From positions 61,752,001 through 61,816,000 of the forward strand of contig NC_058377.1 of NCBI RefSeq assembly GCF_018350175.1: 64,000 bases of DNA, read 5' to 3'. Below are positions 6,599 to 64,000 of this stretch, one piece after another. Position 1 is the first letter of the stretch. Every line of letters starts with the position of its first letter. The notes below the pieces were generated by a model. It saw only the letters and a list, made by a program, of their open reading frames with translations, ran no database searches and was not told where the DNA came from. A program made the translations under genes and the position numbers. Origin of the DNA: Felis catus. Taxonomy: Eukaryota.

Positions 6599-6747
6599 NN
6601 NNNNNNNNNNNNNNNNNNNNNNNNNNNNNNNNNNNNNNNNNNNNNNNNNNNNNNNNNNNNNNNNNNNNNNNNNNNNNNNNNNNNNNNNNNNNNNNNNNNN
6701 NNNNNNNNNNNNNNNNNNNNNNNNNNNNNNNNNNNNNNNNNNNNNNN
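6599..6747. other. Assembly gap (others at 7411-7569, 9340-9573, 46330-46489 and 49971-50099)
   Basis: Runs of N. Confidence 1.
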
Positions 6748-7684
6748 TTTGCTTTTGTTACTCGATCTTTTGGTGTCATATCCAAAATATTGTCACTGAG
6801 AACAATGTCAAGGAGCTTTTCTCCCATGTTCTCTTTTAGCAGTTTTATGCTTTTAGGTCTTACATTTAAGTCTAATTCATTTTGAGTTACTTTGTGTGAG
6901 TGTGTAAGATGGGGATTTAACTTCATTATTTTGCATGTGATTATCAAGTAGTCCCATCACCACTTCTTGAAGAGACTTTCCACTCTCTCCATTGAATATT
7001 CTTGCCTTTCTTGTCAAATACTAGTTGGCCATATATGTGTGAGTTTATTTCTGGGCTGTTGATTCTGTTCTATTGGTCTATATGTCTGTCTTCATGCCAG
7101 TAAAACTTTTTTGATTGCCCGAGCTTTGTAATAAAGTTTGAAATCATAAAGTGTGTGATGCTTTAGGTTTTATTCTTCTTTCTCAAGATTTCTTTGGTTA
7201 TCTGGGAATTTTAGTGGTGCGACATGAGCAGTTAGGCAAGAAAACTGTTTAAAAGTCATCCAAATTAGAAAGATAAAAATAAAATTATCTCTGTTTACAG
7301 ATGATATGATCTTATATAGAGAAAATCCTAAACACTCCATTACAAAAACTATTAGAAATAATAAGCAAATTCAATCAGGTTTCAGGGTACAAAATCAACA
7401 TAATAAACTGNNNNNNNNNNNNNNNNNNNNNNNNNNNNNNNNNNNNNNNNNNNNNNNNNNNNNNNNNNNNNNNNNNNNNNNNNNNNNNNNNNNNNNNNNN
7501 NNNNNNNNNNNNNNNNNNNNNNNNNNNNNNNNNNNNNNNNNNNNNNNNNNNNNNNNNNNNNNNNNNNNNATAAACTGAATAAGATACAAATAAATGGAAG
7601 GATATTTCATGTTCATGGGTAGGAAGAATTAATATTTTTTAAATGTCCATACTGCCCAAAGGCATCAAAATTCCAATGGCATTT

Positions 7685-8166: not shown

Positions 8167-10050
8167 GAATTGGTTTCTGACAAACTTACAAAAGTAATTC
8201 AATGGAATAATGATAGCTTCATCTAAAAATAGTGCTGGAGTAATTAGCCATCTCTGGGGAGGGGGGTGGAAGGAGAAATACTCCCACTTTATACAGAATT
8301 AACTCAAAATTAATATGGACCATAAATTTAAGTGTAAAATATGATACTCTAAAACTTTTAGAAAAATACAAGGGCAAATCTTTGGGGTCTAGGGCAAAGT
8401 GAAGAGTTATGTTTGACATGGAAAGACTTTGTTAAGAGAATGGAAAGATGAGCTACAAACTTCGAGAAAATATTTACAAACAACATATCTGACAAAGACC
8501 TAGTATATGGAATGTTTTAAGAACTCTCAAAACTTCATGGGGCGCCTGGGTGGCGCAGTGGGTTAAGCGTCTGACTTCAGCCAGGTCACGATCTCGCGGT
8601 CCGTGGGTTCGAGCCCCGCGTCGGGCTCTGGGCTGATGGCTCAGAGCCTGGAGCCTGTTTCCGATTCTGTGTCTCTCTCTCTCTCTCGGCCCCTCCCCCG
8701 TTCATGCTCTGTCTCTCTCTGTCCCAAAAATAAATTAAAAACGTTGAAAAAAAATTAAAAAAAAAAAGAACTCTCAAATATAGAAAAATCTAACAGTAAA
8801 ATCAGAAAATAAGCAGAAGACATGAACAAGCATCTCACTGAAGGGAATGCATAAATGGCATATAAATTCATGAAAAGATGCCGACATCATTAATTATTAG
8901 TAAAATGCAAAGTAGAACCACAATCAGATATTACTACAGCATTTCAGAATGGCTTACATGAAAAATGGCACCAAATGCTGTCAAAGATACAGAGGATTTG
9001 GAGCATTCAGACACTGCTGGTGGGAACAGAAAGTGGTACGGCCACTCTGGCAAACACTTAGCAGTTTCTTGTAAAACTAACCATGACTTACCTTATGGTC
9101 TAGCAGTTGTACTTTTGTGTATTCATCTCAGAAAAAATAAAAACATACACCAACCCAAAAACTTGTGCACAAATGTTTATAGCAGCTTTTTAAAAATAAT
9201 TGCTAAAAACTGCAAATAACCTAAATGCTCTCCAGTCACAGAATACTTAAACAAACTGACAAATCCATACAATGAATTGCTGCGCAGCAAAGAAAGGAAA
9301 CAAACTATTAATACATGCAACCAGTGGATACTTTTAAGANNNNNNNNNNNNNNNNNNNNNNNNNNNNNNNNNNNNNNNNNNNNNNNNNNNNNNNNNNNNN
9401 NNNNNNNNNNNNNNNNNNNNNNNNNNNNNNNNNNNNNNNNNNNNNNNNNNNNNNNNNNNNNNNNNNNNNNNNNNNNNNNNNNNNNNNNNNNNNNNNNNNN
9501 NNNNNNNNNNNNNNNNNNNNNNNNNNNNNNNNNNNNNNNNNNNNNNNNNNNNNNNNNNNNNNNNNNNNNNNNNGGGAGGGAGGACGGAGAGAGGGAGGGA
9601 AGCAAGAAAGCCAATTGAGTCTATTTATGTAATTTTCTTGAAACAACACAATTTTAGATACAGAACACAGATTAGTAGCTGGCCAAAGTTAAGAACAAGG
9701 GGAGGGAAAAAGGAAGAGAAGTGAGTATGTCTATAAAGGAGTAGCATTAGGTAGCCTCATACAGATGAGTCAGTTTGGTATTTTGGCTGTGGTGGTATTT
9801 ATAAGAATCTGCAATGTGACACAGTTGCATAAAACTGTATGCACATACATAAAAGTTGAGTGTATATAAAAATAAGTGCATATTTAAATAATCTCTGTGG
9901 ATCATACCACTGTCGATTTGTGGTTTTTGACATTATACTATATTTATGCTAGATGTTTTTATTGGAGAAAACTGGGTAAAACTTCCACAGGATCTCCCGA
10001 TATATATTTTTGCAACTTCTTATGAGTTAATAAGTATTTAAAAATAAAAA
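8167..10050 (+). mobile_element. Old L1 ORF2 3' end and 3'UTR (right part of the host L1)
   Basis: ORF 8965-9219 resembles the L1 ORF2 C-terminus. Contains a SINE and an N gap. Confidence 0.7.
8539..8768 (+). mobile_element. Young felid SINEC_Fc
   Basis: ggggcgcctgggtggcgcag...(CT)n...A tail; flanking repeat AAGAACTCTCAAA. Confidence 0.95.
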
Positions 10051-17579: not shown

Positions 17580-18518
17580 ATGTGGCTCAACACCACCACT
17601 TCCCTGTTTCTGCTTACTGGTTTCCCAGGCATGGAGAAGGCACACCACTGGATTTCCATACCATTATTAGGGGTTTACGTCTCCATACTTCTTGGTAATG
17701 GCACTCTTCTCTTTCTTATCAGGGATGATCATAACCTTCACGAGCCCATGTACTATTTCTTAGCTATGCTGGCAGCCACAGACCTTGGAGTGACTTTGAC
17801 CACGATGCCCACAGTTCTGGGCGTTCTATGGTTGAATCACAGAGAGATTGGCCATCAGGCCTGCTTCTCTCAGGCCTACTTTATCCACACTCTTTCTATC
17901 GTAGAATCTGGTGTTTTGCTTGCCATGGCCTATGACCGCTTCATTGCCATCCGCAACCCCTTGAGATATACTTCCATCCTTACCAACACCAAGGTAATGA
18001 AGATTGGGATGGGGGTATTGACAAGGGCTGGTCTGTCAATCATGCCAATAATTATCCGCCTCCACTGGTTTCCCTATTGTCGATCCCATGTACTCTCTCA
18101 TGCTTTCTGTCTACACCAAGATGTCATCAAGTTAGCTTGTGCTGACATCACCTTCAATCGTCTCTATCCAGTTGTGGTTGTATTTGCAATGGTCTTGTTG
18201 GACTTTCTTATCATCTTTTTCTCCTACTTTTTGATCCTTAAGACTGTCATGGGCATTGCTTCTGGAGAAGAAAGGGCCAAGGCCCTCAATACGTGCATTT
18301 CTCACATCTGCTGCATCCTGGTCTTCTATGTCACTGTAGTTGGTCTAACATTTATTCATAGGTTTGGAAAGCATGCTCCTCGTGTGGTCCACATCACAAT
18401 GAGCTACATCTACTTCCTTTTCCCCCCTTTTATGAATCCTGTTATATATAGCATTAAAACCAAGCAGATCCAGAGTGGTATAATTCGTTTATTCTCTCTG
18501 CCTAACTCTAGAGCATAA
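17580..18518 (+). CDS. OR51B6: Olfactory receptor 51B6, intact single coding exon, 312 aa
   Basis: OR motifs [48 protein letters not shown]. Closely matches recalled human OR51B6 ([20 protein letters not shown], RLFSLPxSRA). A pyrimidine tract plus AG at about 17557-17572 precedes the ATG. Confidence 0.93.
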
Positions 18519-22994: not shown

Positions 22995-24387
22995 GCACGA
23001 AACTATGTCATTGAGTACATATCCTAATTACCAATTAAGTGAAAAATGGGGAAAGTAAGATGTTTGTGGACATTCTATTAAAAAATAGGCACACTGGCCA
23101 CACATCCAGGCCACGTCTGCTGTATAATAGGTAGGAAGCAGTTATGCTCTCCAGCTGGGTCTTCCCCCGCTGTCTGGCTCCCCCACCCATCTGGGTCTCA
23201 CTCAGCATGTCAGAGGAAAGAGACCTGGCTAGACTTGTGACAATAGGCAACTCAGACCCATCCCTGCCAAAACCAAGTTTCTTTTTTTGTGTTTTGGTTT
23301 TCACATTCTGCTTCTCCCAGCTCTACCGGGACGATGTTCGCCTCACCCCCACTCCCATGTGAAGCCCAAGGTTGCAGGCTTCCCTCAGCCTAGTTGGTGC
23401 TTACCAAAGTGCCCTTCCCCTTTTCCCACCCACCCCCCATCCTGTCCCAGACACCAGGAACCTTCACTAGCCTCTAACTATTCTCAGTCACTGTCATCTT
23501 AAGGCTTCTTAAATCCCTATTATCTTATACCTCTTCTCCAAATGTTTTGAGCAAATTGGAATGACTCAGCATACCTGAGTGTGAGTGATGCTGGCCTTCC
23601 TCAGCCAAACAAATTCAGAACGGCCTTCTGATTAAGCGTATCCCAAACCCATCACAGAGGCACAGTGTCGTCGCCCCACTTACAAAGTCCACTCCCGGAT
23701 GATACTGCATTAAGTCCTCACAGGTCAAGGGACACTTAATTCTCATTTATTTTTCAGAGGAGGATCACAGGCTGAGGGAGTAGAAGGGGTCTACCCAAAT
23801 TACATGGCTAAAGATTGGAGGAGCTGGAATGTCAGCTAAGGAATTACCTGAAAGTGAGTCTGGAGGTCTCAGAGGCTTCATACAAATATGAGATGAACTC
23901 ACTCTAGAATATTCTTCTTAATGCTCATGGTGATATACTGGTATTTACCCATGTCCTAGCTTATCCCAACACTGATAGAAGTATTTACAAAGCATAGATG
24001 CTTAAATGTTTTTGAGCTTTACTTTGTGGCAAGAAGGCCACCAGGGTAGCCCTTTGGTATGACTTTTTGAAACCAATAAAACCTCTACAGTCTAATCATT
24101 TGTTACTCCCATCTTGAGTTCTCTTACTGCATTGAGCACAAATTATTTCTTCAAGCCCATTCTTGCCTCAGGAATTTCTCCTCTGCTTTTCCCTCAGGGT
24201 GAAAATACCCTTCCTTTTTACCTGATTCCCATGTACCTGTCAGATGTTACATGCTCTGGGAAGCTTTCTTTGACCATGCCCAAACCTTGCCAGATTTAAT
24301 AAAGTAAGCCATGCTCCCACAGAGTTCTGTAAATCTTCTATTATAATTTTCATATTGCTGTTATTCCTCTTTCATTCTCTGAATCTA

Positions 24388-24947: not shown

Positions 24948-25880
24948 ATGGAGCTCAACACCAGTGCCCCACCCTTTCTGCTGACCGGCTTCGTGGGCCT
25001 GGAAAAGGCTCACCACTGGATCTCTATCCCGTTATCTGTCATCTAGATTGCCATACTTCATGGCAATGGCATTCTCCTATTTCTCATCAGGGTTGACCAT
25101 AACCTCCACGAGCCCATGTACTATTTCTTAGCCATGCTGGCAACCACAGACCTTGGGATGACCCTGGTTACAATGCCTACAGGGCTGTGTGTGATGTGGA
25201 CAAATCATAGGGAAATCAGCCATGGTTCCTGCTTTTGCCAAGCCTGCTTCATCCACACTTTCTCTGTCATACAGTCTGGGATTTTGCTTGCCAAGGCCTA
25301 TGATCAGTTTGTTGCCATCCACAACCCACTGAGATATACTTCCATTCTTACCAACACCCAAATGATAAAGATTGGAGTGGGGGTTTTCATGAAGGGATTT
25401 ACAGTCATCTTGCCTCCAATATTCCCTCTCGATTGGTTTTCCTATTGCAGGTCCCAGTTCTTCTCTCATGCATTCTGCCTCCACCAGGATGTCATCAAAT
25501 TAGCCTGTGCTGACATCACCTTCAATTGCCTATATCCTATTGTGATGGTATTTTCTATGGTCCTAATGGACTGCCTGATAATCTTTTGCTTCTATATTTT
25601 GATTCTCAAAACTGTCATGAGTATTGCATCTGGAGAGGAGGGGTCCAAGGCACTCAACAAATGTGCCTCCCACATCTGCTGTATCTTGGTCTTCTATGTC
25701 ACTGTTTTGGTTTGACATTCATCTACCGATTTGGGAAGAAATGGTCCCCATCTAGTACACATCACAAATAGCTACATCTACTTCCTTTCCCTTCTTTTAT
25801 GAACCCTGTCATCTGTAGTATTAAAACTAAGCAGATTCGCAATAGTATTCTCCAGTTCCCATCAAGAACATGGTATTTAC
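24948..25880 (+). pseudogene. OR51B-subfamily pseudogene (paralog of OR51B6/B5)
   Basis: ATG 24948 gives [32 protein letters not shown], then an in-frame TAG at 25044-25046. The frame continues into ORF 25116-25715 with MAYDR degraded to KAYDQ. One-base frameshifts relative to OR51B6 occur near 25706, 25740 and 25788. A residual MNPVICSIKTKQIR follows. The 3' end is approximate. Confidence 0.92.
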
Positions 25881-28040: not shown

Positions 28041-29747
28041 GAACATTTCTTTTGTATCTGGGAAGGAGTTATATAGACATTTAGATCATTAGTGCCAGGA
28101 ACTGAGCCACAACTGAAAATAAAGTCTTTACTATGTATCAGAAGTCCATGGAAGTATCTAGCTAACTGAAGGACTGGTGGTCACTGAGTAACAGGTTCTG
28201 TGCCTTGAGAGCAGTGTTATTAGAGTATCATTGGTGTTTACCAGCTATGGAAACCATGAAATTAGAGCGTAGGGTAATGCCAAAGACAAAACTATGCCAG
28301 GCTGGTTGTCAGCATTATCTTACCCACCCACCCACCCCCCGCCTTGGGGAATAAGGAAGAATAAGATCAAGCATGTGGTAGAAAATACCGTGAAGAGATG
28401 CATTTAGAGAGAGAGAACAACCCAGTATTCTGCAGTACCAGTCAGCAAATTTCTTCTCCTTTATACACAGCCATGGATATGGTTTTACTACCCCAAAGAA
28501 GTTCTCCCATAAAGAATATTCACACATTAAAACATAGTGAGATACACACGTCACCCTGTCGCCTGACAGGGCTCTAGGTGTGACGGACTACTGTCTTCAC
28601 ACTATTCTGGGTACATTAAGGCACTGGTGAGGCTGAACATTGAAATAAAATGCACTCATGTGAATTTAACACAACCTGATACATTATGCAGTAATGTTTT
28701 TAAAAATCTTTAGATAGAACCTTTGAGTATCAGGGTTTGGTGCAGATATCACCTCCACTTCAAACGACATTCTCAACAGTGTCATAGATGTCATTCATCT
28801 AACGTCATATAATGTCATACCTACTGGCTTGAAGGCAGGATGAAGATTATGTCCCTAGCCATTCTTAGAGGGTCTCTGCCTGCCTCTCAGGGGATATGAA
28901 AGCCTGACTGTGGCCAGAGAGGCACGACTGTAAGCTGGAGAGGGGGGCCCAGGCTCATCAATAGCACTGGGAATCACACACAGTGAAGCACCAGTAAGTG
29001 CCAGTTAGAGAGGGACTTAGGGTCAGTCAACCAGCCATGGAGGAGCCAAGCAATCAGTTATTTGTGAGGGCTAGCTGGTGACGCAAGGGCCCCTGAGTGA
29101 CACACGTTGCTCGTCCAGCTCTATGCTTAGGATCGAGTGACTTAGAGGTGAGCCTAAGTGGACAAGATGAGGAGAGACAAGCCTCCAGTAGGAAGAGAAG
29201 GTCGGTGGAACAGATAGGAAAGAAAATGAGTGAAAGACAGGTAGAAGACAAATGAGAGAGGGCCAGAGAGACAGGGGTGAGGGTCAGAAAGGGAACCCAA
29301 GGGGAGGTCTCAAAGGAAACCAGGGTGTTCCCCTGGGACCCTAGTTCAGGGAAATCATTCTTCATCAGTGACTCATCCTTACCTGTCCCCAGGCAGGAGT
29401 CCCCATGCATGCAGGGTTGAGAGGTCTGAGGTGGGGGTACTATCTGAGCCATGAGACAACAGGAATCAATTGCTCAGCCCCTCCCTGGACTTGGAGTCTT
29501 ATCTCTCAGGCACAAGCCTTCTGCTCTCCAACATTCCCCTCCCAAGCTTTGCAAATACTGCCTCCTGCCCCTATAGTGAAAGACCCAGGATACAGTCTCT
29601 AGGAATGGGGCAAGGGGCTATCCCTCAAGGCTCCTTACAGTTCAGATGGAAGAGAAGCTCTGTCACATGCACCTTGCAAAGTCACATAACCCTGAGTCTT
29701 AGTTATTTCACTGTTAGGTAGAATAAAACCATTTTCAACACACAGTG

Positions 29748-30181: not shown

Positions 30182-31244
30182 TCGACAGAGGTTTTTGAAG
30201 TTACAATGAAAAAAAATTCTTCTGACATCCTGGTACATCAGAATAGAGACACTGACACACTATATGCATTTAAACATATGTAAGCATTCTGCCATCTTGA
30301 CAAAGACAAGGCATTTCCCAGTCCTTACTCAGCAGTTAGAAAGAAGTCACATTTCCCAAAGTTTTACTTCACCAAGGAGAAACTGCCCCTCTTTCAATTA
30401 CACCTCACAAGTAACCCAAGCTTCACTTGGGCCCTTTGCTCCCAAGGGAGCCCCCAGCTCACTCACAGCTCCCATGGCTCTCCAAAGGGAGGTCTGGAAT
30501 CGCATTGGTACATAATCTGCATGTCCAGAATAGTGGACTAAGCATTACAATTATTGTAAATTTCACGTGTGTAATAAACACAATAAAAACTACAGATGTT
30601 GGGAAAGCTCTTGGCTTTCCAGTTATATCCTGCTCACTTTTTTCAACATGTTCAATGGCAAGAATTTGTTCTTAGCTACATTATTTTCATCAGGGACCAA
30701 AACCAATGATATAAACCTTTTATGAAAACATTCAGGTGAGAAGAAATTGTAAATGACTCATTCCACCAAAGCCTAAGAGAGTCTTTCAGGAGCATTGATC
30801 ATATTATCACTTCCCAAACAATGTGATCCAGGGAGATGAGATTTAGTTGTAAAGAATCTTTTTACCCAGACAGAGCAGAAGATGATAAAGCCAGAAGCAG
30901 TGAAAAACATGTCTGACAGAGGACTCTATGGTTACAATCAGGGAAGACATGAACTCATGTTAACTGATAAATAAAAATACTATTGGTTAAATAGAATTAA
31001 GAATTTAAATATTTCATGAGTAAACTCAAGCAAAGAGAAGAAGCTAAGAATTACAGCTTTGAGGAATTTGGCAGGCAAAAATCTCATGTAAATGGGGCAG
31101 CTACATAATGGGTAGATGTTTCAGTTTAGTTTAAGTTACAAATTCAGGGAGCATAATAATATACGTACCTCAATTCCTGCTTTGTGATTCATACATGACT
31201 GGACACCCAAACCAAAAACTTTCCAAGTTTCCCAAGTTCTTTTT

Positions 31245-31496: not shown

Positions 31497-32444
31497 CTAG
31501 TGCAATTGTCTATGAGAAACGAGGTGAAAAATTCTTTGACGGATCTGTTTTGTTTTAATACTATAGATAATAGGGTTCATCACAGGAGGTGCTAGTAGAT
31601 AGATGTTGGCCAGGATGACATGTACAATTGGAGGGGCATGCTTGGCAAAGCGGTGAGTCATGGAAAGTCCCACCAAGGGCACATAGAGGACCAGAACAGC
31701 CAGAATGTGAGACAGACAGTTATTGAGAGCCTGGAAACTTTCACCCTGGGAGCTGATTCTCAAGACACTTCTCAGAATGAGTGCATAGGAGACCACAATG
31801 AGCAGGGGGTCCAATGTAGTAAAGACCAGAGCTATAACAAATCCATACCAATTATTGATAGTGGTATCAGCACACACCAGGCGAATCATGTCTTGATGAA
31901 GGCAGTAGGAGTGGGAGAGATGGTGGGAGCCACAAAATGGAAGCCGTTTCAGTAGGAATAATGCAGGAAGAACAGTCAGAACACAGCGGAAAATGATGGC
32001 TATCCCTATTCTTCTGATGACCCGGTTGGTAAGGATGGAGACATAATGGAGGGGGCGGCAGATGGCCACATAGCGGTCAAAGGACATGGCCAACAACACG
32101 GAAGATTCCATAAAAGAGAATCCATGGAGGAAGAAGAACTGGGCAAAACAAGCCTCAAAGCTGATCTCTGAGGCATTAAACCAGAGGAGTCCCATGACTG
32201 TAGGCAAAGTGGTGAGGGTAAGCCCCAGGTCTGTTAGAGCCAAAATAGAGAGGAACAAGTACATGGGCTCTTGTAGGGAGGGCTCTATCCTGATGACAGC
32301 CAGGATGGTGATATTGCCCACAATGGAGACCGTGTAGAGACAACAGAAGGGGATGGAAATCCAGCCATGGGAAACCTCAAAGCCAGGGATGCCCATGAGG
32401 ATGAAGAAGAAGGGGACTTGAGTGGAGTTAGTAACCCAAAACAT
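31497..32444 (-). CDS. OR51Q1-like olfactory receptor, intact, 315 aa (orthology to human OR51Q1 uncertain)
   Basis: True ATG is at 32444; the track starts at an upstream TTG. Motifs: [77 protein letters not shown], which are characteristic of OR51Q. A minus-strand acceptor CTTTTCACAG ends at 32487. Confidence 0.92.
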   Translation of the reverse strand: MFWVTNSTQVPFFFILMGIPGFEVSHGWISIPFCCLYTVSIVGNITILAVIRIEPSLQEPMYLFLSILALTDLGLTLTTLPTVMGLLWFNASEISFEACFAQFFFLHGFSFMESSVLLAMSFDRYVAICRPLHYVSILTNRVIRRIGIAIIFRCVLTVLPALFLLKRLPFCGSHHLSHSYCLHQDMIRLVCADTTINNWYGFVIALVFTTLDPLLIVVSYALILRSVLRISSQGESFQALNNCLSHILAVLVLYVPLVGLSMTHRFAKHAPPIVHVILANIYLLAPPVMNPIIYSIKTKQIRQRIFHLVSHRQLH

Positions 32445-33282: not shown

Positions 33283-33867
33283 TGTGAAAGGGAGCAGAAT
33301 CTGCCACCCCAAAATATGTCTGTTTGGCTTAACGATTATCTTGAGTTGATTATTTCTAAGAAACAGCAGACCTAGAACAAAAGCTGAGTAGATGTTACCT
33401 TTCTGATCCTTATGCTGACCAGTAAGAGACATTTGCATTTATAGGGGAGATCTGGAAGAGGAGAAGGAGTAAATCTTTGGAAATTCTTACCAATCTCTTC
33501 TCCACCACTATTCTTTCCAATGGCTATAACACACCGTTACACCTTCCTGCTGTAAAGACATACTGTTATGCATGACAACCATTCCCTTGTTTACTGTGCT
33601 TTTCCTGGGAACTTCCCACTAGAAGCTCTCCCTCCTACCCATCCAGCCCCCAACGTTTTTCTTCATCTTTATCCTAAGAAGGCATTCAAGGTGATGGTTT
33701 GGACCATTTCAAGGAGTTACTCACTTTTATTGGGTATGTCCCAGGTAGACTGGAGGTATATATGTTATTAAAATTTTAATCATTTGTCTCCAATTAATCT
33801 TTTACTATAGGGAGTCCTCAGCCAAAAACCTAGAAAGGTAAAGGAAAATTATTTTTATTCTCTTACA
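33283..33867 (+). mobile_element. MER34-like ERV1 solo LTR
   Basis: gcagaatctgccaccccaaaatatg...ttggc...gattat start and cctagaaaggtaaaggaaaa...ttaca end; similar termini to the copies at 42520 and 44314. Confidence 0.75.
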
Positions 33868-40480: not shown

Positions 40481-40617
40481 TGATAATGTGTGCTTACAAA
40501 GAAGCAAAGCAACAGCCCGGTCCGTTGTCACCAGTAGATAGTCCACCTCCTTCCTCATTTGCCTACTAGTAACCATCCCACTGACTACATAGCATAAAAC
40601 CTGCATGACATAGATAA
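40481..40617 (+). promoter_or_regulatory. GATA-site cluster with a half-E-box/GATA composite (candidate erythroid element)
   Basis: TGATAA at 40481, AGATAG at 40536, and CTG-N8-AGATAA at 40601-40617. Confidence 0.4.
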
Positions 40618-40776
40618 GAAAATTTAGCCCTTAGCCTTCCTCATTGCTGTGAATGAGGAAACACAGAGACAGCAAGAGTTTGACTCTTTCTCAGTCTCCA
40701 TAAGAAAGTATATGTAGAGCAGTTCGCGTTAATTCAGGATACGAAGAGCTACTTTATTTTTTTCAGAAATTATCAT

Positions 40777-40970
40777 GGGCCCCTGGGTGGCTCAGTTGGT
40801 TAAGCATCTGACTTAGGCTCAGATCATGATCTCATGGTTCACGAGTCTGAGCCCCATATTGGGCTTTCTGCTGTCAGTGCAGAGCCTGCTTCAGATCCTC
40901 TGTCCCCTCACTCTTTGCCCTTCCCCTGCTCTCTCTCTCTCCCTCAAAAAATAAACATTTAAAAAGAAAA
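40777..40970 (+). mobile_element. CanSINE with TSD
   Basis: TSD AGAAATTATCA at 40765-40775 and 40971-40981. Confidence 0.92.
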
Positions 40971-42519: not shown

Positions 42520-43058
42520 TGTGGGGTCAGAAAAATAATTTTCTTTCTACCCTTCTAGGTTCATGGCTGGGACCACCTCCTTCCCCCATGATAAAAGGCA
42601 GATTAACTACAGAAAAACAAACAAGTTTAATAACATGCATACCTCCTGTATACATGGAAAGTACCCAGGAAAACTCCCCAAAATGTCCCAAGCCACCATT
42701 TAAAATCCCAGATCCATCTAAAGACAACAGATGTTGGGAGGTGGGAAGCCAGTTATGGGAGGCTAGTGGAAAAGCACAGCGATCAAGGGTAAGTTTGTTA
42801 TGCAGATTTAGGTCTTTGCCTTCCCCAACGACCAGTTTCCTGAGGTTTAGTCCTTTTCCTCATCCTGGTAATGGAGGGAGACATCCTTACAAATGGAGAT
42901 TTCCTTACAAATGTAAATGCCTCTTACAAAAGGGTAACTTCTGCTTGGTTGGTTTTCAGAGCTCCCTTGAGCCTTGCTGTTTCTTAAAAATGATCAGCCT
43001 AAAATAATCCTTATGCCAAAGAGGAATATTTTGGAGCCACAAATTCTGCTCCCCTTCA
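42520..43058 (-). mobile_element. MER34-like solo LTR
   Basis: Reverse complement starts tgaaggggagcagaatttg...ccaaaatattcctctttggcataaggattatttt; TG...CA termini. It accounts for the 176-aa ORF. Confidence 0.8.
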
Positions 43059-43482
43059 GGCTACAGCCATTTTCTGCAACAGAGACCCCTCCCCCAACCC
43101 AAGTGAGTCTGAGTCTGGAGAAACCAAAAACCTTGAGAAAGGATTTCCTTTAGTTCTGTGTCTGGTCTGACTGGGGATTCAAAGCTTGGTCAATGTAACT
43201 GGAACTAAAGGCACTCAGACACATCTGCATCCTATGAGGTTATCTTTAATATCTGAGAAAGTAGAGAAAATATATCTCTCCATTACTTTCACGATTTTAT
43301 GTGGGTTATAGGGTTTGGGTATGTCTGTTGTCTGTATGCATGAGACAGAGGAGGAATGCACCAGCTGGCATTTCTTAGAACTTTGTGGGAGATCAACAGG
43401 ATGTGGGAAAATGAAGTTGGAAGATGTATTTTCTTAACCTGTTGGGAAAGGAAGGTTTGAATTTAAACCCATTTGGGGTTGA

Positions 43483-43501
43483 AGGCTCCCCCTGGTGGTT
43501 G
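43483..43501 (-). promoter_or_regulatory. CTCF core motif; candidate ortholog of beta-globin distal HS-111 (human) / HS-62.5 (mouse)
   Basis: Minus strand reads CAACCACCAGGGGGAGCCT versus consensus TGGCCACCAGGGGGCGCTA. It lies in apparently unique sequence about 10.7 kb upstream of the OR51M1 CDS. Orthology is inferred from synteny only. Confidence 0.7.
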
Positions 43502-43755
43502 TATTGGAAAATCACAAGATGCATATTGACCTGGCTGTTCTACAGTAATCTCATACCCCGCCAAGCCTGACTCAGTTAGCTAGGTATTGATACTGGGTAG
43601 AACCTCCCCTAAATATAACTGGGATCCCGAAAAGCATGCTAGGATCCAATATATCCCTGTCTCTCCCACAGGCTTTCTCAATCTCTGGTACAGAGTAGGC
43701 TTACTTGTTCTCCTTGTGGATAGGGAATGAGCTAAGACAGTCATATTCTCACATA

Positions 43756-44313: not shown

Positions 44314-45093
44314 TGTTGGCGAGGGGAAAAATTTTACTCTACTATTCAAGATTCTTCTAGCTAGTCTAAGAATTAAACTGACATGAGACAGATTAATCAT
44401 TAATAAATCATGAAACAGAATAAATTCAAATTTAACTACATATATACGGGGGCTCCATAAGCATAAAAGGTCCATAGAGAGTCAGTCAAGCTATTGAGGA
44501 CTATACCATCAAGAACTATGGAGAAGGGGACAGGGATTTGGGACTTTAAAGGAGAGATAATTCACAAGAAGATGAAAAGAGTAAAAATTTGGTAAACAAA
44601 TGTTTGCTGGGCCTCAGAGAAACAATGAGACAGAATAATTTTAACAAGCAGATTTTGCTAGGTTCCTCCCTGTCTACCACACCTAGTTCATATTATACTG
44701 TAGTTGTCTATGGTAATAGTTCTCTTCCTGGAACAGGTGTCCTATCTAAATTCTTTTAGGCAGTCAATGGGAAGCAAAAAGAAACCTTAGCCTTCTGTTT
44801 CTTAAAAATAATTAGCCTAGGGGCGCCTGGGTGGCGCAGTCGGTTAAGCGTCCGACTTCAGCCAGGTCACGATCTCGCGGTCCGTGAGTTCGAGCCCCGT
44901 GTCAGGCTCTGGGCTGATGGCTCAGAGCCTGGAGCCTATTTCCGATTCTGTGTCTCCCTCTCTCTCTGCCCCTTCCCCGTTCATGCTCTGTCTCTCTCTG
45001 TCCCAAATATAAAAAAAAATAATAATAATTAGCCTAAAATAATCCACATGCCAAAGAGACACATTTTGGGGCAGCAAATTTTGCCTCCCTACA
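44314..45093 (-). mobile_element. MER34-like solo LTR interrupted by a young SINEC_Fc (44820-45023, +)
   Basis: TG...CA termini and flanks TCAT/CCAT. The SINE TSD AATAATTAGCCTA is at 44807-44819 and 45024-45036. Confidence 0.8.
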
Positions 45094-46763
45094 CCATCAT
45101 TACCCAAGGGGACAGAGATGTGCCCAAGAACTATTCCTTTGTTGTTCGGTGCCACCAGCCTTCAGAAACAAATTCTGCCTTCCCAGCCTGGGACAAACTG
45201 TTCAGTAAACTGTGTTTAACACAATCTGTTTTCTTTACCAAATACGATCTTCATAAAGAGAAAACTATGTCATGTCAACTTATGTATCTGCAAGGCCTTG
45301 CTCAGGGTTTTTCAGAGCAGACACTTAATAGATGCATAGCAAACGAAAATTGATAAGAATGGTTAATGTCATTTCAATCTTCATTCTAAAGGATTTTTCT
45401 GTGATATAAAAAAATAAAACAAAAAGACCTAAGAACATTTTGTATTTCTTAAAATGACAATTCCTTGGGCGCTAGTCCTTCATTTACTGTATAATTCAGA
45501 GAAGCAGAGTAGAAAGCTATTATATAGATGCTAGCAAGAAATATAAGGCAAATAGTATTGCAAGCCTCCAGATAAGTGGAAGGTTATCCATCCACTCCAT
45601 AGTATCATTTAGCCACGTGAAGAGCTAGGAGTTATTCTCACCTAGCACCGTGCACCAAACAATGTCTGTTGCCAGTGCAGATTTTAAATACTTTATACAT
45701 ATTGCTAATAATATCTTCCATAAAAAAATACAAGGTCATTCCTTGCTTTGTTAAACTCAATCATCAATATGCATACAGTCTTCCAGACTCTTATCTCTGC
45801 CTACATCTACTGTCTCATTCTAAGGCATTACTTCTCTCAAATTTTATATTTGAGTATTGGAGAATTTTATGGTTCTCAGAAAAATTTCCTCACCTCTATG
45901 CCTTAGCGTATACCCCTCCTTCCTGCCATTCCTTTGCTATAAAGTCCTGTCTCATGATTAATTCTTGCTTAGTCTTCATAGCTCAGTTTGAGTACCTTCC
46001 CTGTGCCTCCCAGTTGGGCTAGTTGCTATGCACCCAAACTCCCATAATTGCTACGTCCATGTCTTTGGTTGTCCATATGATTGTTGTATCATTTCATATG
46101 TCATAGAGGCCCCCAAATAATAGCAATAGTTGCTGCTGATGGTAATAACAGAAGCAATTGTTCCCTAACTTGGCTCCCTCTAGGACATGACCAAAATTAT
46201 GTTCTCAATAAAGGCAGAATATTCTCAATTTTTTCTGATACGAATTTTATTTCCTACAAACCTAATTGAGGATTTTCAACTCTCTCCCTCTGTTGCCTGA
46301 GCCAGAACTCTCTTCATCAACTACAATTTNNNNNNNNNNNNNNNNNNNNNNNNNNNNNNNNNNNNNNNNNNNNNNNNNNNNNNNNNNNNNNNNNNNNNNN
46401 NNNNNNNNNNNNNNNNNNNNNNNNNNNNNNNNNNNNNNNNNNNNNNNNNNNNNNNNNNNNNNNNNNNNNNNNNNNNNNNNNNNNNNNNNTCAAAAGATGA
46501 CCTGCTCTCTGCATCCTGTCCTGTCACCCTAACTCTGCCTGCCTACAGTCTGTCCATAATTACTGGCTATTTACCTCGTCTGAGGTGATGCCATCTTCTA
46601 TCTAGGTGTATTCTGATCACACTGGCATGTCATAAACTTCAGGGGTCTCTGTCCTCACTTTGGGTCTATATGTCCCATTTGGGGGGTTCACATTCATGCA
46701 AACCTGATCAACTATCTCCTGCTTATGATTACATTATTATAATACCTTGTGAATGCCAATCTC

Positions 46764-46803: not shown

Positions 46804-48827
46804 CCACGGGAAGAGAAGTGTGCATACGACCTGACCACATCAATCAATTCAGGTTTTGTAGCTTGGACTGAGGAAGAAACACAAACTGACTTTTCTGAGA
46901 CGATGGTATTTGTTACCAGAAAAGGGAAGAAGGCAAGAAGAGAGGGAACGTTGGGGAAAAGACTCCTTGCGTCAGGGCTTGTTGAAGTAGGGTCCGCATA
47001 TTCAGATTTGAGTGGAGAGCCTCAGGAAAGCCTGAGAAACAGGCTGGAGCATGCATTTGGGATGGGAGTGTGTATGGAAGGTTTTCCTCTGGCCAGCCTC
47101 TAGGCTCAAAGGTGCAGTGTCTGGCAGAGACAAAGAGTGAAGGAATGATCTCATCAAAGGAAATAGGTAAGTGGGCCTGAAAATGACTTCGAGAATGGGA
47201 GGACATGGGGGTGCTGGGGGCTCTGGTGCTTCCAGGAAGGTGAGCAATGTGAGCCAATGTGGCAGCTGCGTGGGTGGCCTTCATACACCACGTCCGGCCT
47301 CTCTGGCAAACTGTGGGACCATTCTGATGAACACAGGGAGGGATCAAATGAGGTAGCAGGTGGCCGGGATCAGTTTCTTCATAAAGCAGGAAAAGGGGAT
47401 GAAGCTGTACCATTTTTCTGCCAGCGGAGATCCAGCAGCCTGGAGATTAAGTCCTATAAAGTGAGGGCTCTTCAGCCTCAGGTGAACTCATGGAAGGAGA
47501 GAGGGATGTAGAGGGGAGAGGAGTCGCGTCGGCTCTTGCCCACAGGGCTTCCAGCCCTGGGGACTCTTTGTTTGTCCTCAGCTTCTCCCAGCTGGTGCCA
47601 TGGTGCTTCACATGCACAGGGAAAGAAGGAGGATAAATCCTTCCCTGGCAGTACAGCCTGAGGCCTCACACTGATGCTGTTGCCATACTGCCTACCCGCT
47701 TCCTCTCCCGGTACAGATCACCTGAGCTTCACTTTTTTAAAACGAGCATCTGCAGGTTAGTCTCCACTGCTGCCCTAAGCCAGGGTTTCAGTGGGGGTGA
47801 GGGTCATATGAGAAGAAAGAGAGAATGCAAGGAGTCAGGGATGTAGAGTTGTCCAGGAAAGCAGAGACCCTGGGAAAATGTGGCCTAAATTTTAATTCCA
47901 GCTCCTGCACCTAATCCTTGAATGACCTTAGACAAGTATATTCAGCACACTGGGCCTTAGTGTTTTGCATTTGTAAAATGAAGTCTTGGATTCCATGATC
48001 TCCCAGAAACTCTTCCACTCCTGACACTAGTAAAAGCCTTTGCAAAGAACCAGGGCCAGAGAAAGGAACAGAGACTGCCCTCTCTAGAGAAAAGGAAAGC
48101 CCATCTACAATAAATATTATGTTACTGAGGCCACGAGAAAGGGCTGCCTGGCTCCCTAGATGTGCCCAGGCCAGGCCCTTCTTGGTTTATTTCTGGAAAT
48201 CATGGATATCATAAACCCTCCGGTCTCCACAGACTCCTCCCTGTCTTCTCATCAACCAAGCATCCATTAGCTTCTTCAGTTCAGATTTTATACATTTTGT
48301 ACATGTGTGCCGATTGAAGTACATTTTGTGTGCCGGACCAGTGAACATGGCAAGAAGGATCTTGCCCCTAGTCTTTTCTATTAACACAGACACCCTTATG
48401 GCTTCCCCAGTATCCAGAATACGTCCACTCCCCTCCAAAGTCCTCATCCACCCTGGTCACAAAAGGCACGTTGACACATTGAATTTGACCCTTGTGGGAA
48501 TGCTCAAAAGTGAGGTATCTTCAAAAATAAGGTCCAAGTCCATCTGGGTATTCTCCTACTCATAAGAAACAGTAGCCTCTACCACTAACTCAGTTTTTTT
48601 AAATAGCAAATATTAGGTTGAAACAAAAGAATATTTCGAACACAAAGGTAAGGTGGAGATCAACCTGTTCATTGCATAGTGAAAAATCTCTTTTCAGGAA
48701 TTTCTTCTTTCGGTCTCTGCTGTGAATACTATAGTTACATTGTCAGTAGCCACGGCTGTATGCTGACAGATGGGCTTCCTGGGTTCTTTTGTTTGTTGTT
48801 GTTTCTGTTTTTGTCTTTTAAAACCTT

Positions 48828-49689: not shown

Positions 49690-50500
49690 ACAAACAGCAC
49701 ACATATAAGGAGTATATATAAGATACAAATAACATATTTCATATATAGGGTATATAAGAAATACGTGTATGTAGGTGTAAGTATAAATATCTGTAAGTAT
49801 AATTATATATAAAGAATATATCTATGAAGAAAATATATCATATTATATGAAGTATGTATAGGTAAATATACTTATTTTTGTTATAGTATACATATATGTA
49901 TTTGTAATTATTACTTATGTGTAACATAAGTAGATACTATATATAAGTATAAATAAGTGTATCTATATACNNNNNNNNNNNNNNNNNNNNNNNNNNNNNN
50001 NNNNNNNNNNNNNNNNNNNNNNNNNNNNNNNNNNNNNNNNNNNNNNNNNNNNNNNNNNNNNNNNNNNNNNNNNNNNNNNNNNNNNNNNNNNNNNNNNNNT
50101 ACACTTAAAAAATTTCTTTAACATTTAATTATTTTTGAGAGAGCATGAGCGGGGATGGGGAAGGGACTAAGAGAGGAGACAGAATCCAAAGCAGGCTCCA
50201 GGCTCAGAGCTGTCAGCACAGAGCCCGATGTGGGGCTCAAACCCATGAAACCATAAGCTGAAGTTGAATGCTTAACTGACTGAGCCACTCAGGTGCCCCT
50301 GTTATTTATAGTATACATATTTGTAATTGTATATACTTATATATAACATATAAGTAGATATTACATATAGTATAAATAAGTGTATTTATAAGCATGTATA
50401 TACTTATCTTTAATATATATGTATATATAAAGGATATATAAGGATAAGTATAAATAAGTGTGTGTATATATATGTATGTATATATATATATAAAGGAAGT
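49690..50500. repeat. TA-rich low-complexity region with a degenerate repeat of about 95 bp and an N gap
   Basis: 49872-49970 resembles 50301-50393 (tatagtatacatat...ttgtaatt...ataagtagata...gtataaataagtgtat). Confidence 0.75.
50105..50299 (-). mobile_element. CanSINE in an AT-rich low-complexity tract
   Basis: Ends gagccactcaggtgcccc. Confidence 0.88.
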
Positions 50501-51759: not shown

Positions 51760-54000
51760 CTGGGAACAGTGCAGAAGCTCAGAGAGTTAGCATTCTCTGA
51801 ACAAGCCCCAGGACCGCAGCAGGGAATGGATCAAGGGGAGTCGGTGTTAAGCGTGCAAGTTAAGCGACAGAGAGGTCAGGTGAGCAGGTGAGGTGAGAAC
51901 TAAGAACTATGTCAGTGAGCACAGGCGTGGAGACAAAGCAACAGACTGCTGGGATATTTAGGAGGTAAAAATTACTTAACTTAGTTAGAAAAATAGATCT
52001 GGGAAGAAGCAAAGGGCCAAGGAAAGGATACATTCCAAAATGTTGTCTTGGATGATTAGAAAGTGTTAAACAATATTGTCAAAAATGCATAAATGGGAGG
52101 AGAATCACGTGTGGAGAGGGTAGAGGATGGGCTCAAGATTAGATGTATTGGATTTAACTGGCATCCATTTTGAGACTAGCAGGAAGGCAGAAGTTCGAGC
52201 CTGATGCCTAGCAGAGCTGTCCGGACTAGAGATAAATAGTTAGGGGTATCAGTCTATAAGTAAAATAATAATAGCTTACATAACGAATGAGAAAGTATTT
52301 AACATCAGGAGCCTGAGTAACATGAACAAATGAACATTTGTGCAATGGATGGGAGGGACTGAACAGGAGCTGTCATAAAAATTAGAAGAGAACCAGCAGA
52401 TCCTGTCATCAAGAATTCCAAGAGGGAGCCTTTAAAAGAAGAAATAGCTCTAGAGGTCAGGTGTGACTAAGCTGCCATTGAATTCCACCCCTAGAGGTCG
52501 TTGGTGAGTTTTAAAAGCTTTGCTTTAGCTAAATTAAAAAAAAAAAAAAAAAAAAGCCATTGGACGGTTGGTTGAGTCGTGAACTTAGGGGTGAAGCAAT
52601 GGAGAGGATACACGTGGATAATCCTTTCACCCCTTGTCAAAGTGATGAAAGGCTGGCATTGGTCTTCTAGAACATGTTTCCTTCTCACCACCTCCTCTGC
52701 ACTCTTTCCACTGGTTGGCAGCATGCACCATCATCGCTAACCCCTCCTGGTTGCATCCACAGCCCTTTCCAGTCCCATTTTATTGGCTAAAATTTTAGCA
52801 CTGACTCACTTTGCTCTTTCCACTACTGATCCAGACTAAATTCTTATGGTTCCAATATTCCCTCCCCTAATCCAATCAGCAGCCACACTTTCAGCGCCCT
52901 GACCTCCTCTTAACAAGGATTGTGTCCTTTACCTTAAATTGGCATCTCAACCCCATCCCACACTCTAGATCGCCGGTCCTTTTTCACCATCTCTCACTCC
53001 TTCATGTCTTCACTTTTCATTTTACGCAGTGCAGTGTCCACAGCACATCATCATAATTACTCTTTTGATAGACCCTGAACTGTCATCATACAAGCCTACC
53101 CTAACTTCAACTCTCCACATACTTCTCTTCTGCATTTGAGCAGATAAACACAGTGGTCAAAAACACACAAGAATGCTGACCAGTTCCACTTTGAATTTAT
53201 GAACAACCAATGGGTCTCATCTCTGCCTGGAATCCTACACTGCCTCCTTCATCTGAAAACTAGAATCAGATTTGATTCCCAACCACTCCATGGAAATGCT
53301 CTCTCACAATCAACCATGACTTCCTCGTCCCTAAATCCTCTGGTCACTTCTCAGTCCTTATTACCTTGACCCCTTAGTGATATTATATTTAATTGATTAA
53401 TCCCTCATGAAACTTACACCCAAAACCACCATCTCCTGTTTTTTGCCTGATGCAACTGGGATTTTATTTTCCCTCAGAATATTTTAGAGAAGTCTCTCTT
53501 CTCTACTTCTAAATGCCAGATTTGCCCAGGGCTCAATACTAGAAACTTCTCTCTACACTCACTTCTTAGGTTTTGTCCAGCCTATTTACTAATATCTCTC
53601 AAATATATGTCTCTTCCTCAACTTATTTCTGAAGTCTACATTTCCTATACTGAGTTAATGAAAACATAACAAATGAAAACCCTACTGGGGGAAGTGATTA
53701 TAAGTTGAATTTTTGACATGCTTTTGAAACAACTAGATGTAGATGCTCACTCAACATGCTGCTAGATAGGAGCCTAGAAATAAAAAATAAAAAATATCAG
53801 GTTATATATTTGATATTTATCAATGTATGGATAGTAAATAAAATCATGTGAGTGATGATATTGCCAGGAGAAACAATAGAGTATGGCCAGAAAATTGCTC
53901 AGAATAGGAATGGTTATATTTCAAGCATGAGCAATGAAGAGAAGCCAGCAAAGGAGGCTGAGAAGGAATAGAAATTGCAGAAATACTGAAGAAAATCTGG
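51760..54000. mobile_element. Mosaic of ancient L2 fragments in both orientations
   Basis: L2-like phrases ctaaatcctctggtcacttctcagtcctta, aagttgaatttttgacatg and gccagcaaaggaggctgagaagga. Confidence 0.55.
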
Positions 54001-54173: not shown

Positions 54174-55160
54174 ATGATAGCTCTCTTCAGTCCTCAATTC
54201 ATGCTCTTATCCAACATTACTCAGTTTAGTCCCATGTTCTACCTCACTGGCTTTCCTGGATTGGACACCATCGAACACTGGATTTTCATCCCCTTTTTCC
54301 TTATGTACCTTGTGGCCATCTCGGGCAATTGTTTCATTCTGATAGTTATTAAGACCAACCCTCGTCTGCACAGACCCATGTACTATCTACTCTCTTTTCT
54401 GGCCTTCACTGACCTGGGACTGTCAGTGTCTACCTTGCCCACCACTATGGGAATCTTTTGGTTCAAATCTCATGGTATCTACTTTGTGGCTTGTCAGATC
54501 CAGATGTTCTGTATCCACTCATTTTCCTTCATGGAGTCCTCAGTGCTCCTTATTATGTCCTTTGACCGCTTTTTGGCTATCTGCCACCCCCTTAGGTACT
54601 CGGTCATTATCACTAGCCAGCGAGTGATCAGGGCAGGTCTGGCTGTCATCTTCCGGGGACCTGTGGCCCTAGTTCCCCTTGTCCTCCTCCTGAAGTCTTT
54701 TCCCTACTGTGGGCCTCGAGTCCTTTCCCATTCTTTCTGCCTACACCAGGAAGTGATACACTTGGCCTGCACAGATACCACCTTCAACAACCTGTATGGG
54801 CTGGCAGTGGTGGTGTTCACTATGATGCTGGACCTGGTGCTCATTGCACTGTCTTATGGGGTCATCCTGCACACCGTGGCAAGACTGGCCTCCCAAGAGG
54901 AGCAGCTCCGAGCCTTCCAAACATGTACCTCACACCTCTGTGCTGTACTGATATTCTTTGTGCCTATGGTGGGGCTGTCCCTCGTGCACCGCTTTGGGAA
55001 GCACGTCCCACTTGCTGTCCACCTTCTCATGGCCAATGTCTATCTCTTTGTGCCTCCTATGCTTAATCCAATCATATACAGTATTAAGACCAAGGAGATC
55101 CGCCACATTATCAGCAAACTCCTCGGTCTTAAGAACGTCAGTACTAAGTCTTGGAGCTAA
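54174..55160 (+). CDS. OR51M1: Olfactory receptor 51M1, intact, 328 aa (alternative start Met at 54201)
   Basis: [16 protein letters not shown]-terminus, [43 protein letters not shown] and [16 protein letters not shown] match recalled human OR51M1. Acceptor-like TTTATTTTCAG ends at 54158. Confidence 0.93.
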
Positions 55161-63729: not shown

Positions 63730-64000
63730 ATGAAGAACTCTAATAGCTCTTTGGAGTTCTTACCTACAACGTTCATTCTGATTGGCATCCCAGGGCTGGA
63801 GGCAGAGCACCTCTGGATATCCATCCCCTTCTGCCTGATGTACATTATCATCTTCCTTGGGAATGGCACCATCCTTCATGTCATCAGAACAGACACTGCC
63901 CTACACCAGCCCATGTACCTCCTTCTTGCCATGTTGGCACTGGCTGAGGTTGGTGTCTCTGCATCTACTCTGCCTACGGTGCTAGGCATCTTCCTTTTTG
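63730..64000 (+). CDS. OR51J1: Olfactory receptor 51J1, 5' part (truncated by the window end; intactness unknown)
   Basis: Manual translation MKNSNSSLEFLPTTFILIGIPGLEAEHLWISIPFCLMYIIIFLGNGTILHVIRTDTALHQPMYLLLAMLALAEVGVSASTLPTVLGIFLF matches the recalled human OR51J1 N-terminus, including LAEV in TM2. It follows OR51M1 as in human. Confidence 0.88.
   Translation, partial: MKNSNSSLEFLPTTFILIGIPGLEAEHLWISIPFCLMYIIIFLGNGTILHVIRTDTALHQPMYLLLAMLALAEVGVSASTLPTVLGIFLF

Follow-up and report, generated by a model that had tools for sequence, protein, structure and literature searches.

A predicted felid ortholog of the human C7/CTCF-110 boundary site among cat olfactory receptor genes

Does the olfactory receptor (OR) cluster of the domestic cat hold the counterpart of the distal CTCF site that lies at the upstream edge of the human beta-globin domain? 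The initial annotation of 64,000 nucleotides of Felis catus DNA (assembly GCF_018350175.1, contig NC_058377.1, positions 61,752,001 to 61,816,000 of the forward strand; the whole stretch is hereafter the window) had proposed that it does, pointing to a CTCF motif as the felid ortholog of the anchor that in human and mouse lies between OR51B6 and OR51M1. The human site HS-110 is located between these two genes, at a distance of 110 kb upstream of HBE1 (PMC3857487). Five CTCF sites frame the human locus (+145, 3'HS1, HS5, -100 and -110), the two upstream ones ~10 kb apart, and the TAD is bounded at +145 on one side and at -100/110 on the other (PMC5647940). These sites are named C3 to C7 in PMC11698014, which assigns the TAD boundaries to C3 and C7, whose motifs are convergent, and in its primer table has C5, C6 and C7 on the LCR side. 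From the numbering and the distance, we infer that C7, CTCF-110 and HS-110/111 are the same human element.

The motif in the cat DNA is present as claimed. On the minus strand at 43485-43498, CCACCAGGGGGAGC agrees with the 14-base CTCF consensus at 13 of 14 positions, the one off-consensus base being an A in place of C. Just one other stretch of the window matches the consensus with three or fewer mismatches (40777-40790, with three). We scanned the window with a CTCF matrix after JASPAR MA0139.1, and the 19-mer that contains the core (43483-43501, minus strand) ranked first at 20.0 bits (p ~1.2 x 10^-7), ~7 bits ahead of a runner-up at 12.6 bits. The ranking was unaltered under a larger pseudocount. 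By the same matrix, 0.015 sites with such a score are expected per window. No CpG was found within 43470-43520. On the minus strand, the sequence 5' of the core bears a likeness to the upstream module recognized by zinc fingers 9-11 of CTCF, but the likeness was too loose for the module to be counted. Three middling CTCF-like scores (10.4-12.6 bits), each in the chance range, cluster within 270 bases at 52485-52753, 1.4 kb upstream of OR51M1. The segment 43150-43740 is also contained in four ChIP-Seq runs of one study (shares of 0.98, 0.96, 0.38 and 0.38); the targets of these runs are not given, hence they provide no evidence of occupancy.

Published oligonucleotides for human C7 allowed a direct comparison with the cat DNA. 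The CRISPR guide used to cut the human C7 motif (Table S1 of PMC11698014) has a single match in the window within three mismatches, on the plus strand at 43476-43495, where 18 of the 20 bases agree; in shuffled sequence, the search returned any match in 1 of 100 trials. The 11 core bases under the guide are all identical in cat and human, including the off-consensus A, and agreement extends to 7 of the 9 bases outside the core. An SpCas9 target requires an NGG PAM. Directly after the cat match, at the place where the human target needs this triplet, the sequence reads TGG, extending the matched feature to 43476-43498. An unrelated CTCF site is expected to agree with the guide at 9.3 of 20 bases and would reach 18/20 or better with a chance of 3.1 x 10^-6, and the agreement of the outer bases (7/9) has a chance of 6.7 x 10^-4; both are rough figures from a model that combines this CTCF matrix with random flank and assumes independent positions. 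When set by eye in the register of the C7 guide, the C4 and C5 guides of PMC11698014 gave 8/20 and 10/20, respectively.

We also compared four ChIP primers, two for C7 and two for C6, from the larger table of the same source (PMC11698014). One C7 primer has a weak match (15/24) at 43453-43476, adjoining the guide match and on the same (plus) strand. As 23 of ~128,000 positions match this primer as well or better (~0.02 within 100 bases), the match counts by its position alone. The second C7 primer was not found near the motif in the expected orientation (best match 14/25, on the wrong strand; gapped rank 283 of 1276). Homology to human C7 rests on ~45 bases of published oligos. Within them, the complete identity of the core bases, set against neighbouring primer sites that are ~60% identical or unrecognisable, suggests constraint on the motif.

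The flanking genes place the motif in the same interval as the human element. We looked up three ORFs by exact sequence and took the gene names from the listed members of the matching clusters. OR51B6 (17580-18518) and OR51M1 (54174-55160), both on the plus strand, flank the CTCF motif, which lies 25.0 kb past the former and 10.7 kb before the latter. An intact OR51Q1-like gene (31497-32444, minus strand) is located between OR51B6 and the CTCF site, and the named members listed for its cluster are all felids. A shorter form of the OR51M1 ORF, when used as the query, was absent from the protein collection. The window as a whole is a mammalian olfactory receptor cluster, interrupted by N gaps at 6599-6747, 7411-7569, 9340-9573, 46330-46489 and 49971-50099. 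It also includes a broken OR51B-like gene (~24948-25864, plus strand), which shares 69% identity with dog OR51B6 across 279 residues and changes frame near 25709-25784. At the window end another OR gene begins (63730-63999, plus strand), possibly OR51J1-like. Downstream of the OR51Q1-like gene are two O/E (EBF)-type palindromes, at 29329-29338 and 30440-30449. Between the CTCF site and OR51M1, the DNA is richer in G+C at 46900-48000, and the stretch 47001-48000 is the highest kilobase of the window (0.51).

At its low end, the window cuts into a gene on the minus strand and contains its 5' part (3-152), which is 98% identical to an OR51B5-like protein of Panthera pardus; others among its 34 matches are named OR51B5 or OR51B2-like. 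The human order is given as OR51M1, HS-111, two other gene models, OR51B5, OR51B2 and OR51V1 in a figure legend of PMC2926601. Read against this order, the OR51B5-like gene indicates that the globin genes lie toward lower coordinates. The minus-strand motif would then face the globin cluster, as had been claimed, provided that synteny holds across to the cluster itself, which is outside the window. The syntenic interval and the 18/20 match to the guide together make it very likely, as far as sequence can tell, that the cat motif is the felid ortholog of human C7/CTCF-110.

A chance or repeat-derived CTCF motif, specific to carnivores and unrelated to the human site, would have to account for the same data. 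Motifs of this strength are not beyond the reach of chance, as 4 of 200 block-wise dinucleotide shuffles of the window (~2%) attained 20.0 bits, and repeats are present on both sides of the motif. To the left is an interspersed repeat (42531-43058, plus strand) with relatives at 33285-33856 (60%) and 45020-45093 (80% over 74 bases); to the right is the end of a related, SINE-interrupted copy (44785-45093, plus strand). These repeats are putative LTRs by resemblance. The description of the motif as lying between two LTRs was right in that related repeats occur on both sides, yet the motif is separated from the right-hand copy by a CA tract and a SINE, and the LTR label is itself tentative. The motif-bearing segment between them (43060-43740) has no relatives elsewhere in the window save two matches of 17-19 bases at an E value of 0.44, and in this within-window sense it is the unique sequence that the initial annotation had taken it for. 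The absence of relatives speaks against a repeat origin. Further, the motif sits outside the repeats recognised by within-window comparison and is shared with human, as the guide match indicates, which argues in the same direction. With 18 of 20 bases in common with the human C7 guide, flank included, and in a syntenic interval, an unrelated carnivore motif is scarcely credible, and we retain orthology to C7.

Two short words near the motif raise a different alternative, in which GATA1 and NF-E2/AP-1 bound beside CTCF would make the site a composite erythroid enhancer and insulator, and the anchor itself erythroid-specific. Both words are where they had been reported, within 250 bases of the motif: a GATA word (TTATCT, 43240-43245, minus strand) and an AP-1 heptamer (TGACTCA, 43568-43574). 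The joint presence of the two has some weight, as only 118 of 2000 shuffles of 43200-43600 contained both, and HS-110 has been described as an erythroid-specific DNase site (PMC3857487). Taken singly, however, the GATA word is at chance level, with WGATAR present in 1471 of the 2000 shuffles, and the AP-1 site is weak (169 of 2000). Searches of 43200-43600 with motif patterns found no TAL1-GATA composite, GATA cluster or full MARE. The two full TGCTGASTCA words of the window, which read as MARE-type TGCTGAGTCA, are located elsewhere, at 23562 and 61095; for this reason, we do not accept the earlier reading of TGACTCA at 43568-43574 as MARE-like. Neither word was retained as a part of the element. 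In mouse, furthermore, the TAL1-bound HS-60 is a site separate from the CTCF site HS-62 beside it (PMC4815170). We consider a composite erythroid element very improbable.

By the loop-extrusion rule, the orientation of a CTCF motif decides which cohesin is stopped, and convergent sites pair. Applied to the cat locus, the rule leads us to predict, with good confidence, that the ortholog of C7/CTCF-110 binds CTCF and stops cohesin extrusion where the beta-globin domain ends on its upstream side. Extrapolating from the human work, CTCF and cohesin would occupy the cat site in most cell types, and the motif, facing the globin genes, would halt cohesin arriving from the globin side. The cat site would pair with sites of opposite orientation on the downstream side of the cluster, having C3/CTCF+145 as its TAD partner and contacting 3'HS1/C4 more weakly. 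Such pairing would close a domain in which the LCR lies together with the globin genes and the OR51B genes, with OR51M1 and the DNA beyond it outside; the OR51Q1-like gene at 31497-32444 would fall inside the globin domain by this boundary. The erythroid character of the contacts would come from GATA1 at the LCR and not from the lone GATA word beside the motif.

Several features of the human locus inform this prediction. C7 binds CTCF and SMC3 and pairs with C3 in human-chromosome hybrid cells (PMC11698014), and C3 and C7 are described as the more strongly occupied sites (bioRxiv 2020.05.14.095547). CTCF binds in nearly the same way throughout the TAD whatever the lineage, but the sub-TAD contacts are a feature of erythroid cells (PMC5647940); sub-TAD and inner contacts depend on GATA1, whereas the C3-C7 contact is independent of GATA1 at the LCR (bioRxiv 2020.05.14.095547). 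In human, the motifs of the upstream sites are in convergent orientation with those of 3'HS1 and 3'-OR52A5, which are forward sites (PMC8500713). The contact between 3'HS1 and the upstream sites was detected by Capture-C (PMC5647940), yet it was not called a loop in Hi-C of HUDEP-2 cells (q above 0.25; PMC8500713). The initial annotation had cast the cat motif as a globin chromatin-hub anchor convergent with 3'HS1. The orientation agrees with this, by synteny, but 3'HS1 as the main partner is not supported by the human data, where C7 pairs with C3 and the loop between 3'HS1 and the upstream sites goes uncalled in HUDEP-2 Hi-C.

Deletion of C3 plus C7 abolishes the TAD, weakens the inner sub-TAD and lowers beta-globin RNA by ~80%, and the same source states that losing one boundary site leaves transcription unaffected in human hybrid cells (PMC11698014). 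Likewise, the contacts of mouse HS-62.5 are CTCF-dependent, yet the site is dispensable for globin transcription, as cited in PMC2243019. Because the C3-C7 contact is GATA1-independent, single losses are silent and mouse HS-62.5 is dispensable, the cat site is likely a constitutive, partly redundant structural boundary of the domain rather than an enhancer. The silence of the single-site deletions in human and mouse also means that selection for a globin role may be weak. It is conceivable, then, that the C7 ortholog persists in felids by ancestry, unbound or anchoring no globin loop, or bounds only the OR cluster; in human, the border of a lamina domain (PMC3857487) and that of an A/B compartment (PMC5647940) also fall in this region. 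Against this reading are the 11 identical core bases of 11 under the guide next to primer sites that are ~60% identical or unrecognisable, and a motif score far above background, and we regard it as improbable. Base-for-base conservation in spite of silent single deletions fits a structural role that is redundant but selected.

Human C7 has a neighbour, C6, and we searched the cat window for the corresponding second anchor. No CTCF motif above 9.3 bits was found in 20000-43400, a stretch free of N gaps, with either of two pseudocounts. Both human C6 ChIP primers gave noise-level matches in the window, including a 16/25 match at 43304 that was one of 11 equals. With nothing above 9.3 bits in 20000-43400, a felid C6 may be absent or weak, although a weak C6-like site below this score could still be bound. 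At ~2.9 kb from the CTCF motif, toward the globin genes, 40481-40618 contains three GATA words in 140 bases, one of them in a half-E-box/GATA composite (CTG-N8-AGATAAG). This stretch is a possible counterpart of mouse HS-60.7. We treat it as a lead only, since the window has five composites of this type against 3.75 expected and at least 12 GATA clusters of 150 bases that are equally dense. These observations could be joined in a scheme in which C7 is the single ancestral upstream anchor of the beta-globin domain in placental mammals and felids have no C6 but retain an HS-60.7-like element at 40481-40618, pushed off by repeat insertions. We hold the scheme to be doubtful; if true, the cat locus would offer a natural case of a boundary with one anchor where human has two.

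For human, published work already covers the element, where it lies, which sites it pairs with and what follows from its deletion, and the cat site is likely a felid copy of this known boundary element rather than something new. We found no felid description of the site in the literature searched, which leaves out most subscription papers; genome-browser alignments would show the felid site. Its interest lies in the conservation: no chromatin domain of mammals is better studied, and its upstream boundary appears to have been preserved to the base in primates and carnivores alike, within a fast-changing olfactory receptor cluster. The coordinates 43483-43501 also provide a precise reference point for Hi-C or CUT&RUN in cat.

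Compared to known systems, the cat site most closely invites comparison with human C7/CTCF-110 (one of the 5'-OR51B5-CBSs; HS-110, HS-111), with which it shares the OR51B6-OR51M1 interval, 18 of 20 bases under the guide, the off-consensus core base and, by synteny, an orientation toward the globin side. Unlike human C7, the cat site has repeat insertions on both sides and is separated from OR51B6 by an OR51Q1-like gene and an OR51B-like pseudogene. Nor did the cat window yield, as in human, a second strong motif to match C6/CTCF-100. C6 is also in the OR51B6-OR51M1 interval and a member of the same convergent set as C7 (PMC11698014); the cat motif matches C7 instead. Mouse HS-62.5 (near Olfr65) is likewise a CTCF site far upstream that is embedded in olfactory receptor genes, the cat one being a prediction. 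HS-62.5 is the putative mouse ortholog of human HS-111; the papers searched yielded no sequence of the mouse site. Studies by Splinter and by Bender, both from 2006, are reportedly the origin of the findings that its contacts depend on CTCF and that the site is dispensable. Mouse HS-62.5 contacts HS5 and 3'HS1 (PMC2243019, PMC4815170). It has, in addition, a TAL1-bound neighbour, HS-60.7, and the mouse locus carries a further site, HS-85.5.
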